Virus record (IMG/VR): IMGVR_UViG_2568526473_000002
Coordinates: 1 to 40,006 of that record
From: a virus
Taxonomy: Duplodnaviria > Heunggongvirae > Uroviricota > Caudoviricetes
Direction: 5' to 3' (one strand)
Length of the DNA: 40,006 nucleotides
Positions 1 through 38,592 of this stretch are shown here, in pieces (position 1 is the first letter of the stretch; every line of letters begins with the position of its first letter). The notes beneath the pieces are model-generated. The model saw only the letters and a program-made list of their open reading frames with translations. It did not search any database and had not been told where the DNA came from. Both the position numbers and the translations under genes were made by a program.

Positions 1-1164
1 TTACGCCTTCTTTATATCCTCCATAATTCCAGAGTGGGACATATTTGGGACATTATCACCAAAAATGTCGTCTATTTTCCTCGCGTGCTCTGTCAAATGA
101 TTAGGCGCAAGGTGAGCATATCTACGAACCATTTCTATGGACTCCCATCCGCCCATTTCCTGAAGCACTGATAATGGGACGCCTGACTGAATCAGCCAGC
201 TTGCCCAGGTGTGTCTGAGGTCATGGAAACGGAAATCTTCAATTCCTGCACGACGACAAGCTGATAGCCATGATGTTTTGCTGTCGATGCGCATCTTCCT
301 GACCGCAGGCGTTGATGTTCCATCTGCTCGCTTAGCCGCCTTGGTATGTACAAACACCCATTTGTGATGCTTGCCTATTTGATCACGCAACACTTTACAG
401 GCGGTATCGTTCAGCGCCACACCAATAGCGCGGTTTGATTTGCTCTCTTCTGGATTCACCCAGGCAACTCGTCGCTGCATGTCGATTTGTTGCCATTCCA
501 GATTTATGATGTTCGACTTTCTCAGACCAGTTGCCAGCGCAAACTTGACGACAGATTTCAGTGGTTCGGGGCACTCATCAATAAGGCGTTTTGCTTCCTC
601 CTTTTCCAGCCATCTGACTCGCTTGTTTCTGACCGCTGGTATCTTGATGACAGGCGCTTTTTCCAGCCACTTCCAGTCGCGTTCTGCAGCACGGAGAATG
701 GCCTTTATCATGGCAAGATGCTTTGCCTTGGTCTGAGTTGATACTGGCTTTGGTTCATAAACAGGTGGTTCTTTACCTTTCCTTATGGCGGCCTGAACTT
801 TCTGTTTCCATATTTCTTTCGTCTTTCTGTTATGCATTCTGCTTACAGCAGAGTAAATCTTTGCCTCCGAGATATCTTTAAGCCTTATACCCTCAAAATG
901 TTCAAGCCAGAACTCAATCCGGCTTTTATCTGAATCGAGAGATTTTTTATCAGCTTTTTCCTCAAGCCATCTTAGGCAGGCCTCTTCAAAAGTGACATCA
1001 GGTAAATCCCCTAGCTTTTCTACTCGCCAGAGTTCTGCTTTTCGCTTGTCGTGCAACTCCTGAGCTTGCCGCTTGTCCTTTGTGCCAAGAGATTCCTTAA
1101 TTCGTTTCCCGCCCGGGAGCGAATACGAGGCATACCATATTTCATTTCTGCGGAAGAGTGACAT
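1..1164 (-). CDS. int: Tyrosine site-specific integrase (DLP12 IntD-like)
   Basis: 387-aa ORF; C-terminal catalytic signature [10 protein letters not shown] and MVRRYAHL (HxxR and Tyr nucleophile); first gene of the prophage. Confidence 0.93.
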
Positions 1165-1391
1165 TTTCTTTCCTCTGTTATGCCATCACCCGCGCTCACC
1201 TGGACAGTATGCAGCGGAGACTGAAGCGCCGCAATGCAGGCTTGCCGTGTTGTGAGGTAAGGAGATTTTGGCTTGGTTGGATCTTTACGTGTTGCCTGTA
1301 GGCGGCCTGTTCGTATCCAGTTGGTGGCGGTTGGTCTGGATATCTTAAGAAACTGACAGGCCTCATCGAGTGTGAGGCTGTATGATTCCAT
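1020..1391 (-). CDS. xis: Excisionase-like DNA-binding protein; start taken at internal Met (MESYSL), overlaps int
   Basis: Directly upstream of int on the same strand; text '[25 protein letters not shown]' looks like a winged-helix/HTH. Start codon is ambiguous. Confidence 0.55.
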
Positions 1392-1641
1392 GGTTACCTC
1401 TGCTTTTTGAACGCATGTCACGTAACTTCTTAATGTGTTCTGCCGTTTCGATCTCTTCTGCTATCCGATCTGCATCAGCTTTATTCACAGGTTCAAAGTC
1501 ATGATTAAAGCGGAACATGCTGGCGATACATGTTCTGCCTTTTCGGATGTAGTGAACTTTGTTGTGGGTAGAACGCAGGATTTTGCAGGGAGTGCCGTGG
1601 TGGTCGACGTACCAGGTGTTAGGAAAAATGATTCTGAACAT
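1363..1641 (-). CDS. Hypothetical early-left protein (92 aa)
   Basis: ORF in the int-exo accessory block, co-oriented with neighbours; no recognised motif. Confidence 0.4.
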   Translation of the reverse strand: MFRIIFPNTWYVDHHGTPCKILRSTHNKVHYIRKGRTCIASMFRFNHDFEPVNKADADRIAEEIETAEHIKKLRDMRSKSRGNHGIIQPHTR

Positions 1642-1688
1642 TTTTACACCTCAGTTGGACGATGTTGAAATTTGCTGCTTTGAGGCCA

Positions 1689-1907
1689 TCACAGTCCCCA
1701 TTGTTTGTTCTTAAGTTCGATCTCCTCCTGGCAACTTGCACAAGTCCGACAACCCTGAACAGCCAGGCGTCTTCGCTCATCTATCGGATCGCCACACTCA
1801 CAACAATGAGTTGCGGATACAGTCTGGTAGTTCAGACGACGCATTTTTATTGCTGTATTGCGCTGTAATTCTTCGATTTCTGATGCTGAATCAATGATGT
1901 CTGCCAT
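1689..1907 (-). CDS. TraR/DksA-family C4 zinc-finger protein (lambda Orf73-like)
   Basis: 72 aa with CCECGDPI...CRTCASC four-cysteine motif typical of TraR-like RNAP-binding proteins; position matches the lambda b-region. Confidence 0.7.
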   Translation of the reverse strand: MADIIDSASEIEELQRNTAIKMRRLNYQTVSATHCCECGDPIDERRRLAVQGCRTCASCQEEIELKNKQWGL

Positions 1908-2005
1908 CTTTCATTAATCCCTGAATTGTTGGTTAATACGCTTGAGGGTAAATGCGAATAATAAAAAAGGAGCCTGTAGCTCCCTGATGATTTTGCTTTT
2001 CATGT

Positions 2006-2287
2006 TCACCGTTCCTTAAAGACGCCGTTCAACATGCCGATCGCCAGGCTTAAATGAGTCGGTGTGAATCCCATCAGCGTTACCGTTTCGCGGTGCTTCT
2101 TTAGTACGCTACGGCAAATGTCATCGACGTTTTTATCCGGAAACTGCTGTCTGGCTTTTTTGATTTCAGAATTAGCCTGACGGGCAATGCTGCGAAGGGC
2201 GTTTTCTTGCTGAGGTGTCACTGAACAAGCCCCATGTCGGCAAGCATAAGCACACAGAATATGAAGCCCGCTGCCAGAAAAATGCAT
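2006..2287 (-). CDS. Hypothetical protein (93 aa; true start may be internal)
   Basis: ORF co-oriented in the early-left operon; no motif recognised. Confidence 0.35.
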   Translation of the reverse strand: MHFSGSGLHILCAYACRHGACSVTPQQENALRSIARQANSEIKKARQQFPDKNVDDICRSVLKKHRETVTLMGFTPTHLSLAIGMLNGVFKER

Positions 2288-36885: not shown

Positions 36886-36886
36886 T

Positions 36887-37330
36887 ATGAATCAATATAT
36901 TTATTCCCCTTCGGAAAATGCTTTTTATGCTGTTAATTTAAAAAACACTTATGAAGTAAATGGAACATGGCCTGCTAATGCATTAGATATTCCTGATGAT
37001 ATTTCTGTAAAATATATGGCGGAACCGCCACAAGGGAAAATCCGAGTTGCAGGGGAAAATGGTTTTCCCACATGGGCTGAAATACCTCCACCATCACATG
37101 AGGAACTTATTGAACAGGCCGAATCAGAGAGGCAATTATTGATTAACCAGGCCAACGAATACATGAACAGTAAACAATGGCCCGGTAAAGCCGCTATTGG
37201 TCGTCTGAAAGGTGAGGAACTGGCGCAATATAATTTGTGGCTGGATTATCTGGATGCACTGGAGCTGGTTGATACCTCCAGTGCGCCAGATATTGAATGG
37301 CCTACGCCTCCGGCAGTTCAGGCCAGATGA
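36887..37330 (+). CDS. Tail fibre assembly protein (expressed orientation)
   Basis: Directly downstream of the tail fibre gene; conserved C-terminal text ...LDYLDALELVDTSSAPDIEWPTPP typical of Tfa proteins. Confidence 0.75.
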   Translation: MNQYIYSPSENAFYAVNLKNTYEVNGTWPANALDIPDDISVKYMAEPPQGKIRVAGENGFPTWAEIPPPSHEELIEQAESERQLLINQANEYMNSKQWPGKAAIGRLKGEELAQYNLWLDYLDALELVDTSSAPDIEWPTPPAVQAR

Positions 37331-37904
37331 CATCCGGCGCGGTGCTGGTATCTGTTGCCGTCACCGCGTCAATGTAATCCAGCACAGCGTTAAGTCTGGT
37401 TGTTTCTGCCTGCGTCGGTTTACGTCCGGCCTGCAATTTCAGTTGAATCAGACTGATGGAAGCCATTGCTGCATCAATCAGTGACTGGCGCTGTGCTTCT
37501 GCCGCTTCTACTGCGGCACCGTGTTGTGCCTCAGTATCTGTCACCCATTTTTCACCATCCCATTTATCGTATGGAGTTAACGGGGCGATAGTGGTTGTAT
37601 TTTCGGGATAGTCGCCTAGTGCTGTGATTTCTTTGGCATCTCCCGTTTCGGTGTTATAGACGATTTCACCGCGATGGTCTGACACATATTCCCATGATTT
37701 TAAATCCACAGAACGGCAAATTGTATAACCAGCCTTAGATGTACCAGGAGCGTCTAAACAGGAATATGCTGGAATACCGACACCCACTGCAAGATATTCA
37801 GTTGATGCAGAAATATATTCCCGCGTCTCACCATCATAGTTATAGACGGTAATATTCCCCGCCTTCGTGGTAATAAGCTCGCTATTTAATACGGCGTTAT
37901 CCAT
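37302..37904 (-). CDS. Alternative tail fibre assembly protein (inverted cassette)
   Basis: Opposite strand; C-terminal text ...VLDYIDAVTATDTSTAPDVIWPELPEA parallels the plus-strand Tfa C-terminus. Confidence 0.75.
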   Translation of the reverse strand: MDNAVLNSELITTKAGNITVYNYDGETREYISASTEYLAVGVGIPAYSCLDAPGTSKAGYTICRSVDLKSWEYVSDHRGEIVYNTETGDAKEITALGDYPENTTTIAPLTPYDKWDGEKWVTDTEAQHGAAVEAAEAQRQSLIDAAMASISLIQLKLQAGRKPTQAETTRLNAVLDYIDAVTATDTSTAPDVIWPELPEA

Positions 37905-38440
37905 TATGCAGCCCTCACGATATAGTTAAATGCAATATTTCGTGGACGGGTTTCACTCCCGCCAGTATTACCGATACTCCCTCGTGAATGAAGTGTCGGT
38001 GATGGGATCAGACTCCCTCCGGCAGCGGCAGCATCAAGCCCCCTGCCTTGCTTATATGCTCTTCTGAAGATTGTCGCTAGTTCCCATTCCTCTTTTGAGT
38101 CATACCCATCGTTGGCGACAACAGGATGACGGTGCTTTTCCAGCATTCCGGCCTGAATACTCAATAAAACACGTCCTGCATCAATACCGCGCCCGTCATC
38201 CCAGCCACGAATAAACTCACCGCGTAAATCAGGTAATTTATTTGTTGGATAAGCCTTTGCCAGTTCCGGGTATTCTTCAGCAGAAAATGCCGCACCGTTG
38301 CATTTCAGCCAGCCTGTTGGCGGTGTGGCTGAAGGCCATGGAACAGGCACACCAACAGGTAATGCAGAGCCTTCTCCCAAACCAACGTTTATGAAAATGA
38401 AGAAATAACAAGCAAATGGCATCATTCCTGCTTTTACCAA
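37904..38440 (-). CDS. Alternative tail fibre C-terminal (receptor-binding) cassette, promoterless in the current orientation
   Basis: Reading frame passes through the right crossover site, encoding the same LGLGE junction; no plausible own N-terminus. Confidence 0.7.
   Translation of the reverse strand: MVKAGMMPFACYFFIFINVGLGEGSALPVGVPVPWPSATPPTGWLKCNGAAFSAEEYPELAKAYPTNKLPDLRGEFIRGWDDGRGIDAGRVLLSIQAGMLEKHRHPVVANDGYDSKEEWELATIFRRAYKQGRGLDAAAAGGSLIPSPTLHSRGSIGNTGGSETRPRNIAFNYIVRAA
38372..38397. other. Right inversion crossover site (gix/pix-like), ttctcccaaaccaacgtttatgaaaa
   Basis: Pseudo-palindromic site of Gin/Hin/Pin type (AAACC..GTTT core); inverted repeat of the left site; immediately upstream of the invertase remnant. 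Confidence 0.7.
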
Positions 38441-38451
38441 GGGGATTTAAC

Positions 38452-38592
38452 ATGCTTATTGGCTATGTACGTGTATCAACAAATGACCAGAACACCGATC
38501 TACAACGTAATGCGTTGAACTGTGCAGAATGTGACCGGATTTTTGAGGGTAAAATGAGAGTGAGCATATTGCGTCACTTCAGCATGCTGTAG
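38452..38592 (+). pseudogene. Truncated serine DNA invertase (Pin/Gin/Hin family), N-terminal 46 codons only
   Basis: MLIGYVRVSTNDQNTDLQRNAL matches the catalytic N-terminus of Pin-type invertases (Ser nucleophile region); frame ends at TAG 38590-38592, whereas intact invertases are about 190 aa. Confidence 0.8.

Follow-up and report, generated by a model that had tools for sequence, protein, structure and literature searches.

The defective prophage DLP12 of Escherichia coli K-12 occupies the 3' end of the tRNA-Arg(UCU) gene argU and is a 21-kb remnant of deletions and insertion sequences (IS3, IS5), in which xis, exo and P persist as fragments, the late remnants are lambda-type and the virion module is wholly absent. 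Its relative PhiR68_2 (PV340576; 49.7 kb) forms plaques and is one of the lambda-related temperate phages assembled as a panel for plaque (efficiency-of-plaquing) assays (PMC13190303, citing Brenes and Laub 2025); its genes run in the order intD, emrE, ybcK, nmpC, essD, Nu1/A ... ybcY-tfaX-appY-ompT. A different virion is found in phage SfI (NC_027339), which was induced, identified by electron microscopy as a myovirus with a head of about 55 nm and a contractile tail of about 110 nm, and described as a mosaic of lambda-type early genes and an SfV-type virion, with its cos ends mapped and cos packaging demonstrated experimentally and reported to be similar to that of SfV (PMC3636060). Here we describe an apparently intact E. 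coli prophage in record IMGVR_UViG_2568526473_000002 of the IMG/VR database (Caudoviricetes), of which positions 1 to 40,006 were analysed; this whole stretch of 40,006 nucleotides (nt) is referred to as the window.

The window is a single contiguous prophage with densely packed genes in the canonical lambdoid order: int-xis, recombination, immunity (cI/cro with OL and OR), O/P, nin, Q, lysis and virion. One set of every module is present, with a single integrase, xis, immunity region and replication module. We read the window as 40.0 kb of a single temperate lambdoid prophage of about 41.7 kb, integrated in the 3' end of argU by its IntD-type tyrosine integrase, and put the probability that the element is still active at about 0.6. 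It is a mosaic of five parts: int-xis, Red, immunity, O/P and nin genes from the DLP12/PhiR68_2 lineage; a Q gene of the phage 82 type; a lambda R-like lysis cassette; the HNH/TerS/TerL cos packaging genes, HK97-type head and Mu-type contractile tail of SfV/SfII; and a DLP12-type right end comprising the tfaX remnant, appY, ompT and attR. The design of lambda-type early genes with an SfV-type virion is already known, SfI being the characterised precedent, and the same early/late combination is functional in that phage (PMC3636060).

The prophage is apparently complete, every gene that could be compared with that of a functional phage being full length. Genes were compared one by one with those of PhiR68_2, SfII, SfV and PhiR47_2, and no frameshift, stop, insertion sequence (IS) or deletion was found in any comparable gene; the tail-fibre invertase alone is truncated. 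All PhiR68_2 early genes from int to ylcG have a full-length counterpart at 91–100% amino acid (aa) identity (83% for YlcG), except ren, the one early gene of PhiR68_2 absent from the window, which is dispensable. Likewise, the virion proteins, TerS through gp48, match those of the induced phage SfII over their full length in 22/22 cases, at 92–100% aa identity. The preliminary description of this DNA, which had seen an apparently complete prophage carrying lambda recombination (exo, bet, gam), O/P and endolysin genes and a full structural module of HK97-type head and Mu/SfV-type contractile tail, was borne out in these respects by Pfam families and aa identities to plaque-forming or induced phages (PhiR68_2, SfII). 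The hybrid head–tail design that it described, an HK97 head with a Mu tail, is the standard SfV virion type.

The boundaries given there, 1 to 38592, were not borne out: at 38592 the open reading frame (ORF) of a truncated Pin-type invertase stops, not the prophage, and both attachment (att) sites lie outside the window. The window begins at the integrase stop codon (387 aa, minus strand, 1-1164) and ends at the appY stop codon (39257-40006), and no copy of the argU att core was found anywhere in it. For K-12, a 45-bp core, CTTCTAAGTCGTGGGCCGCAGGTTCGAATCCTGCAGGGCGCGCCA, forms a perfect direct repeat with copies at the argU 3' end and beyond ompT; the repeat reaches 47 bp with the next two T residues (PMC6379469). 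The same repeat, with perfect cores, flanks a related prophage of E. coli 2012C-4221. Exact-protein look-ups returned public assemblies carrying the same prophage:

L010: window span 3075-23176, identity 100%
L008: window span 1-23176, identity 99.99% (two single-nucleotide polymorphisms, SNPs)
L026: window span 27302-40006, identity 100%

Strains with 100%-identical copies include those of assemblies GCA_000492655.1 and GCA_054493745.1. In L008, 15 bp separate window position 1 from the end of the attL core to its left, and the same distance separates the end of argU from the int stop codon. In L026 appY is followed by ompT and then attR, whose core begins 1,625 bp past position 40006. Because of these two core positions, the integrated element comes to about 41.74 kb and the phage genome to about 41.69 kb, 0.5% larger than that of SfII (41,475 bp). 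The predicted integration slot is thus the 3' end of argU, that of DLP12 in K-12. Since the attR core lies past ompT, appY is placed by position inside the element as phage cargo, and so is ompT, outside the window; PhiR68_2 also has both genes inside its att-bounded genome.

The predicted attP reads ...GTCGTTCTAGGAA-(45-bp core)-TTACAATTCAATCAG... An exact search of IMG/VR viral contigs for this junction (right arm, core, int side) gave 0 matches. The same pattern was found in a metagenome collection on one 1.8-kb contig, OLEA01004031.1 (L030, 1-1776). Its first 192 bases match the ompT-distal arm and core of L026 without a difference, and the remainder is int-xis at 97.8% to the window. This is consistent with the attP arrangement expected of the excised circle of some IntD-family phage.

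The early region comprises the following features, with which candidate control sites were also recorded:

1-1164, minus strand: intD-type tyrosine integrase, 387 aa (Pfam Phage_integrase on an identical protein); 387/387 aa identical to those of PhiR68_2 and the 2012C-4221 prophage, 385/387 to K-12 IntD
1020-1391, minus strand: excisionase Xis, 123 aa (Pfam HTH_17), overlapping the int 5' end
1363-2650, minus strand: DUF4222, TraR/DksA-like, orf61-like, DUF1382 and DUF1317 genes (Pfam), full length, 92–100% aa to PhiR68_2
2641-3321, 3318-4103 and 4109-4405, minus strand: lambda Red genes exo, bet and gam (Pfam YqaJ, RecT, Gam), full length, 98–99% aa to PhiR68_2
4482-4723, minus strand: kil-like cell-division inhibitor (phrog_294 "Kil", E = 8e-38; Pfam KilR on an identical protein)
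4974-5014, minus strand: candidate pL promoter and OL operators, by pattern match; sigma-70-like site at 5002-4974 (10/12 positions) and imperfect palindromes at 4976-4991 and 4997-5014, with a motif in common with the cI-cro gap
5170-5981, minus strand: two uncharacterised ORFs at the rexAB position, 130 aa and 132 aa (phrog_3556, phrog_4293), about 37% GC
6057-6749, minus strand: CI repressor, 230 aa (Pfam Peptidase_S24 and HTH_3, LexA-type autocleavage domain); 94% aa to PhiR68_2 cI, with the Ala-Gly site and GDSM and VKRL motifs in the translation
6793-6860: OR operator and pRM/pR region, with repeated CAATA/TATTG-type motifs in common with the OL candidate; 96–100% identical to relatives, 96% to PhiR68_2
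6860-7087, plus strand: Cro (YdaS-type helix-turn-helix), 75 aa, 100% aa to PhiR68_2 Cro (phrog_35, transcriptional repressor)
7118-7657, plus strand: YdaT-domain protein at the cII position (Pfam YdaT_toxin, E = 9e-30), 97% aa to the PhiR68_2 protein annotated cII
7654-9371, plus strand: replication genes O (7654-8673) and P (8670-9371) (Pfam Phage_rep_O, Phage_lambda_P), full length, 97% aa to PhiR68_2
14521-16108, plus strand: DLP12-type nin genes ylcH-like, ybcN, ninE, ybcO, rusA and ylcG, full length, 83–98% aa to PhiR68_2

Two apparent defects in this region were considered and set aside. A broken xis, suggested by the PGAP label "HTH protein, incomplete" in related genomes, was rejected on alignment with the SfII/SfV Xis: the ORF is full length, matches residues 29-144 of those proteins at 80% aa identity and overlaps int as in SfV. 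K-12 xisD, for its part, is without its 5' part, and DLP12 homology ends at window position 1259. A suspicious OR mutation at 6817, a SNP relative to L008, was dismissed because the window has the majority allele, the same as that of PhiR68_2.

Beyond the nin genes, the late half of the element consists of the following:

16105-16794, plus strand: late antiterminator Q of the phage 82 type, 229 aa (Pfam Phage_antiter_Q, E = 7e-95), 94.4% nt to phage 82 Q and not matching the quuD type of DLP12
16778-16992, plus strand: candidate pR' late promoter and tR' terminators, by pattern match; pR' site at 16778-16806, terminator-like hairpins at 16862-16888 and 16976-16992
17116-18414, plus strand: lysis cassette of holin, endolysin, Rz and Rz1
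17116-17421, plus strand: holin (phrog_785)
17408-17884, plus strand: lambda R-like endolysin, 96.8% aa to SfII R and 89% to lambda R
17868-18260, plus strand: Rz i-spanin (DUF2570)
about 18139-18414, plus strand: embedded Rz1 o-spanin, lipobox LLTGC intact
18920-19270, plus strand: HNH endonuclease, packaging accessory (Pfam HNH), 94.8% aa to SfII HNH
19271-19395, plus strand: cos region, the SfV genome ends corresponding to the junction 19328/19329
19396-26924, plus strand: packaging, head and neck genes, full length, 92–100% aa to SfII (Pfam)
26933-36243, plus strand: Mu/SfV-type contractile tail and baseplate, full length, 98–100% aa to SfII

The stretch from Q to the endolysin gene (R) is 93.9% identical to plaque-forming PhiR47_2, and window 18919-36597 is about 97% identical at the nt level to Shigella phage SfII. 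The packaging, head and neck set comprises TerS (P27 family), TerL, a YmfR-like protein, portal, S78 protease, HK97-fold capsid protein, connector, head closure, neck and tail terminator. For packaging, Pfam HNH, Terminase_4 and TerL families were matched at 95–99% aa identity to SfII, with cos conserved (2–3 mismatches between the HNH-TerS gap and the ends of the SfII/SfV records); for the head, Phage_portal, Peptidase_S78 and Phage_capsid (PF05065) at 99–100%. Tail genes encode homologues of DUF2635/gp38, sheath, tube, chaperone, tape measure, DNA-circulation protein, hub, gp45, gp46, gp47 and gp48, the Mu-like set of gp38, L, M, tape measure, N, P and gp45-48; on the 100%-identical L026 copy the families DUF2635, sheath, tube, DNA_circ_N, Phage_Mu_Gp45, GP46, Baseplate_J and Phage_Mu_Gp48 were detected. 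A truncated TerL, called at 498 aa in L008 and L011, was traced to the start choice of the gene caller; the 577-codon frame is open in all copies.

The tail genes are followed by an invertible tail-fibre cassette and the right end of the element:

36247-38440: invertible tail-fibre cassette of the Mu G-segment/e14 P-segment type (tail-fibre and assembly PHROG families)
36247-36885, plus strand: expressed fibre
36887-37330, plus strand: chaperone of the expressed fibre
37302-37904, minus strand: silent alternative chaperone
37904-38440, minus strand: silent fibre C-terminus
38452-38592, plus strand: truncated Pin/Gin-type invertase, its first ~34 residues matching the intact 184-aa invertase of L022
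38559-38711, plus strand: 3' fragment of tfaX, a tail-fibre-assembly gene, where the DLP12-type right end starts (97.6% nt to K-12 onward)
39257-40006, plus strand: appY, AraC-family regulator, 100% aa to PhiR68_2 AppY

The crossover inverted repeats of the cassette (36531-36550 and 38371-38390) are 20 nt long and 95% complementary; among related prophages with an intact invertase, the segment is found in either orientation. Because the invertase is cut to ~34 matching residues, the fibre of the present element would be locked unless a Pin-family invertase of another prophage acts in trans. This loss should not be lethal, the invertase being dispensable.

The two boundaries of the SfV-type segment differ in kind. 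At the left, the sequence departs from DLP12 at the border of ylcG and Q (16109); exchange at a gene border is typical of lambdoid modules. At the right, homology to the invertase ends at about 38546 and tfaX starts at 38559, with no shared sequence between the two, and this junction is therefore illegitimate. The 2012C-4221 prophage, in which a partial recombinase is annotated, has the same junction but other immunity, cargo, Q-lysis and tape-measure segments; modules have thus kept exchanging since the junction formed.

Gene content, full-length genes, homologies and boundaries are observed; from the protein families involved we infer a working that would lead to induction and infectious particles. 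CI, an S24-type autocleaving repressor, would keep pL and pR shut until SOS-activated RecA brought about its cleavage. Cro, O and P would then start replication, while Int and Xis would excise the genome between the 47-bp att repeats, and Q would allow read-through from pR' into the lysis and virion genes. HNH and terminase would cut cos near 19328/19329 and fill the HK97-fold capsid, which would join the contractile tail, with the fibre switch fixed in one orientation by truncation of the invertase. A lysogen would gain the inverse-autotransporter adhesin, the esterase, AppY and OmpT as cargo.

Several points weigh against an active phage. The att cores were read in near-identical copies (L008 at the left, L026 at the right) and in 2012C-4221, outside the window itself, and the 1.8-kb contig with the attP pattern is too short for assigning an SfV-type or lambda-type late module. 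The exact module combination has no isolated or deposited counterpart among the phage genomes searched. The junction of invertase and tfaX remnants was found in 1 of 5,426 complete E. coli genomes (2012C-4221, 99.9%), a rarity that fits a single recombination in situ and vertical inheritance over a circulating phage. No N or cIII homologue was found among ORFs of at least 25 aa in 4380-5200. Regulatory or missense defects, finally, are invisible to the gene-by-gene comparison.

Several of these points recur in a competing account, which is possible though clearly less probable: a "grounded" prophage of intact appearance, in which a DLP12-type resident took up SfV-like late genes once in the chromosome and has since been inherited vertically. 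A mismatch in regulation, the lack of antitermination or a subtle missense change would keep it from completing the lytic cycle, and its cargo (AppY, OmpT, adhesin) would be the reason for its retention. The illegitimate right junction and destroyed invertase speak for it, as do the rarity of that junction, the missing N and cIII and the unmatched module combination. DLP12-slot prophages are, moreover, reported to be the most prevalent "grounded" prophages of E. coli (PMC6379469). Related elements do decay in some strains, as the large terminase gene is frameshifted in the SfV-like prophage of strain muskdeer13-4, which has the best-matching SfV-type late module in a complete genome (L031, NZ_CP128596.1, locus 14887-16619). 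Against this account, the present element shows no such lesion, the one truncated gene being dispensable, and the att cores are perfect in the near-identical copies. The early layout without N is common to plaque-forming PhiR68_2, which likewise has no N or cIII between kil and the immunity region and a YdaT protein at the cII position; because of this, the clade must handle early antitermination differently, including read-through of the convergent cargo genes toward Q. The 2012C-4221 prophage, in turn, argues for continued exchange. A put-like RNA of the HK022 kind was looked for in the 245-nt pL leader, but its fold (z = -1.78) was not convincing.

How a still-active phage of this build came about can be suggested tentatively: the argU/DLP12 slot, the most prevalent "domesticated" prophage slot of E. 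coli, may have been re-armed, a resident DLP12-type prophage capturing a whole SfV-type myovirus packaging, virion and lysis module. The crossovers would be the clean module boundary after ylcG at the left and the illegitimate junction inside the invertase gene at the right. Were it true, a contractile-tailed virion would mobilise host-relevant cargo, namely appY, ompT and the 1184-aa adhesin, with a receptor range other than that of the lambda-type relatives of DLP12.

For the relation to DLP12 itself, the annotated DLP12 region of K-12 MG1655 was aligned to the window by blastn, which gave five matching segments:

1-1259: intD and the 3' part of xisD, 99.2% nt
2615-2920: exoD remnant, 99.3% nt
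9060-9360: peaD, P 3' end, 94% nt
14521-16109: ylcH-ybcN-ninE-ybcO-rusA-ylcG, 95.4% nt
38559-40006: tfaX 3' end and appY, 97.6% nt

Together these sum to 4.9 kb, or 12.3% of the window. At 94–99% nt they agree with the earlier observation that int, the nin region and the right end match DLP12, and the argU site and the 47-bp att repeat, as read in the near-identical copies, are those of DLP12. The label "DLP12-related" therefore holds for the integration, early and right-end modules and fails for the rest. In particular, quuD, nmpC, essD-rrrD-rzpD, bor, nohD/aaaD, emrE and ybcK-M of K-12 DLP12 were all absent from the window. The surviving late genes of DLP12 are lambda-type (nohD/aaaD correspond to lambda Nu1/A, together with essD-rrrD-rzpD and quuD), whereas the Q, lysis cassette and packaging genes of the window are of another type. 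DLP12's late genes are collinear with those of PhiR68_2 and of an E. coli ST70 argU prophage, both with lambda-type head and tail; no such late-region collinearity joins the window to DLP12 or PhiR68_2 (12.3% and 28.8% aligned, respectively).

It is consequently very improbable that the window represents the undeleted ancestor from which K-12 DLP12 arose by deletions. The shared integration site, integrase (385/387 aa), nin genes and tfaX-appY right end speak for such an ancestor, but DLP12 keeps nohD/aaaD, essD-rrrD-rzpD, quuD, nmpC, emrE and ybcK-M, genes that are collinear with the two lambda-type elements and missing here, and so little of the window matches it. The preliminary description had taken the element for a possible inducible relative of the defective prophage; judged by late-gene type, the full-length counterpart of DLP12 is instead the lambda-type siphoviruses such as PhiR68_2. 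This corrects a tempting reading of the element as DLP12 before it decayed, a correction of modest importance. Least credible of all is a DLP12 remnant lying beside an independently integrated SfV-like prophage: sequence affinity does shift sharply at 16109 and 38559, but there is one integrase, xis, immunity region and replication module and no att core inside the window, the SfV-like part, in contrast to typical SfV-like or e14-like prophages, brings no early genes, and the left boundary coincides with the border between ylcG and Q, as it would in an ordinary lambdoid mosaic.

The single prophage favoured here was then set beside its closest relatives. It shares with SfI a P22/DLP12-family integrase with overlapping xis, DUF4222 and DksA-like genes, lambda Red, CI/Cro, O/P, nin and Q, followed by HNH, cos packaging, the SfV-type HK97 head and the Mu-like contractile tail. 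SfI differs in its thrW integration, gtr O-antigen genes, N, cIII, rexAB and lambda cII, a different Q, two tRNAs and a DLP12-like holin. The present element, for its part, sits in argU and has no gtr cassette, N, cIII or rex; its cII position is taken by a YdaT-type protein, its Q is of the phage-82 type, and it carries appY, ompT (outside the window), the inverse autotransporter and the esterase. Neither thrW integration nor a gtrA-gtrB-gtr(type) cassette, traits of the Shigella serotype-converting subgroup (SfI, SfII, SfIV, SfV), was found in the window; the gtr position, between tail fibres and attP, is taken by the invertase remnant, tfaX remnant and appY.

Phages SfII and SfV and the e14-type E. 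coli prophages have virion, packaging and Rz modules at 92–100% aa identity and the same cos region, and the tail-fibre region of e14 is similar. They differ in an e14-type early region (ymfK/ymfT/ymfL, yfdN, dam) and in thrW or icd integration, and gtr genes are present in the two Shigella phages. The e14-type early region is the usual one for phages and prophages of the SfV-like kind, among them SKA5, vB_EcoM-689R6 and the prophage of strain muskdeer13-4.

A further relative is the argU prophage of E. coli 2012C-4221 (NZ_CP027437, 1578154-1620135), of which we know of no study. It aligns with 76% of the window at 96.5%, shares the slot, the integrase, the SfV-type late module and the right junction, and has appY-ompT and perfect att cores. 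Its immunity region, Q-lysis stretch (84–90%) and tape-measure and DNA-circulation segment differ, and it carries emrE-ybcK cargo in place of the adhesin. PhiR68_2 aligns with 28.8% of the window at 96.5%, having the identical integrase, the att core of the near-identical copies, the early-left genes, cro, cI, O/P, nin and the appY-ompT end; it differs in its lambda-type Q (quuD), nmpC, essD/rrrD/rzpD, Nu1/A, lambda-type head and non-contractile tail. By these comparisons, one integrase, early region and appY-ompT right end serve at least two kinds of virion in the argU slot. For lambdoid phages, such mosaicism is textbook material. No complete E. coli genome reached 80% coverage of the first 20 kb of the window.

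In addition to appY, two cargo genes are carried between P and the nin genes, where they are convergent:

9622-13176, plus strand: inverse autotransporter (intimin/invasin-family adhesin), 1184 aa (Pfam IAT_beta, E = 4e-101; Big_1 and Invasin_D3 repeats)
13213-14256, minus strand: alpha/beta hydrolase (esterase), 347 aa (Pfam BD-FAE, Abhydrolase_3)

The adhesin gene is present in many E. coli prophages, including those of ST131 genomes, and in 0 of 50,697 deposited phage genomes searched. The hydrolase gene is 98% identical at the nt level to the same gene in the isolated phages 4A7, Perceval and PhiR47_2. If the prophage is inducible, appY, ompT and the intimin-family adhesin would be transferable by lysogenic conversion via an SfV-type myovirus, which would bear on the spread of these fitness and virulence genes. 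Genome CP125919.1 has two appY-ompT copies (L018 and L019; 2872324-2893073 and 787548-808297), one in the usual argU/envY context and the other behind lambda-type tail genes near the fadL/mlaA region, where it adjoins a different integrase. Because of this second copy, the appY-ompT cargo also travels with phages using other integration sites.

Searches for other elements in the window gave 0 tRNA genes (ARAGORN), no IS elements and no Rfam family at gathering score, with no tRNA, nut, put or antisense RNA leads. At the rexAB position, the two ORFs (5170-5562 and 5583-5981, both minus strand) had no Pfam match; one (130 aa) has a coiled-coil-like middle and a C-terminal hydrophobic segment. 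PADLOC, run on these and other small ORFs, returned one marginal match (PbeC, E = 0.003), which was taken as noise. Judging from where they lie, the two may form a superinfection-exclusion or defence pair. A 106-aa ORF located after the spanin genes and before the HNH gene (18507-18827, plus strand) belongs to phrog_2483, function unassigned, and scored 26.7 bits against Pfam GrlR, under the 26.8-bit cut-off; GrlR is a negative regulator of LEE type III secretion, and this ORF may be a regulatory moron. G+C content is about 45–52% in the early half and 53–59% in the virion genes, falling to 29% in appY.

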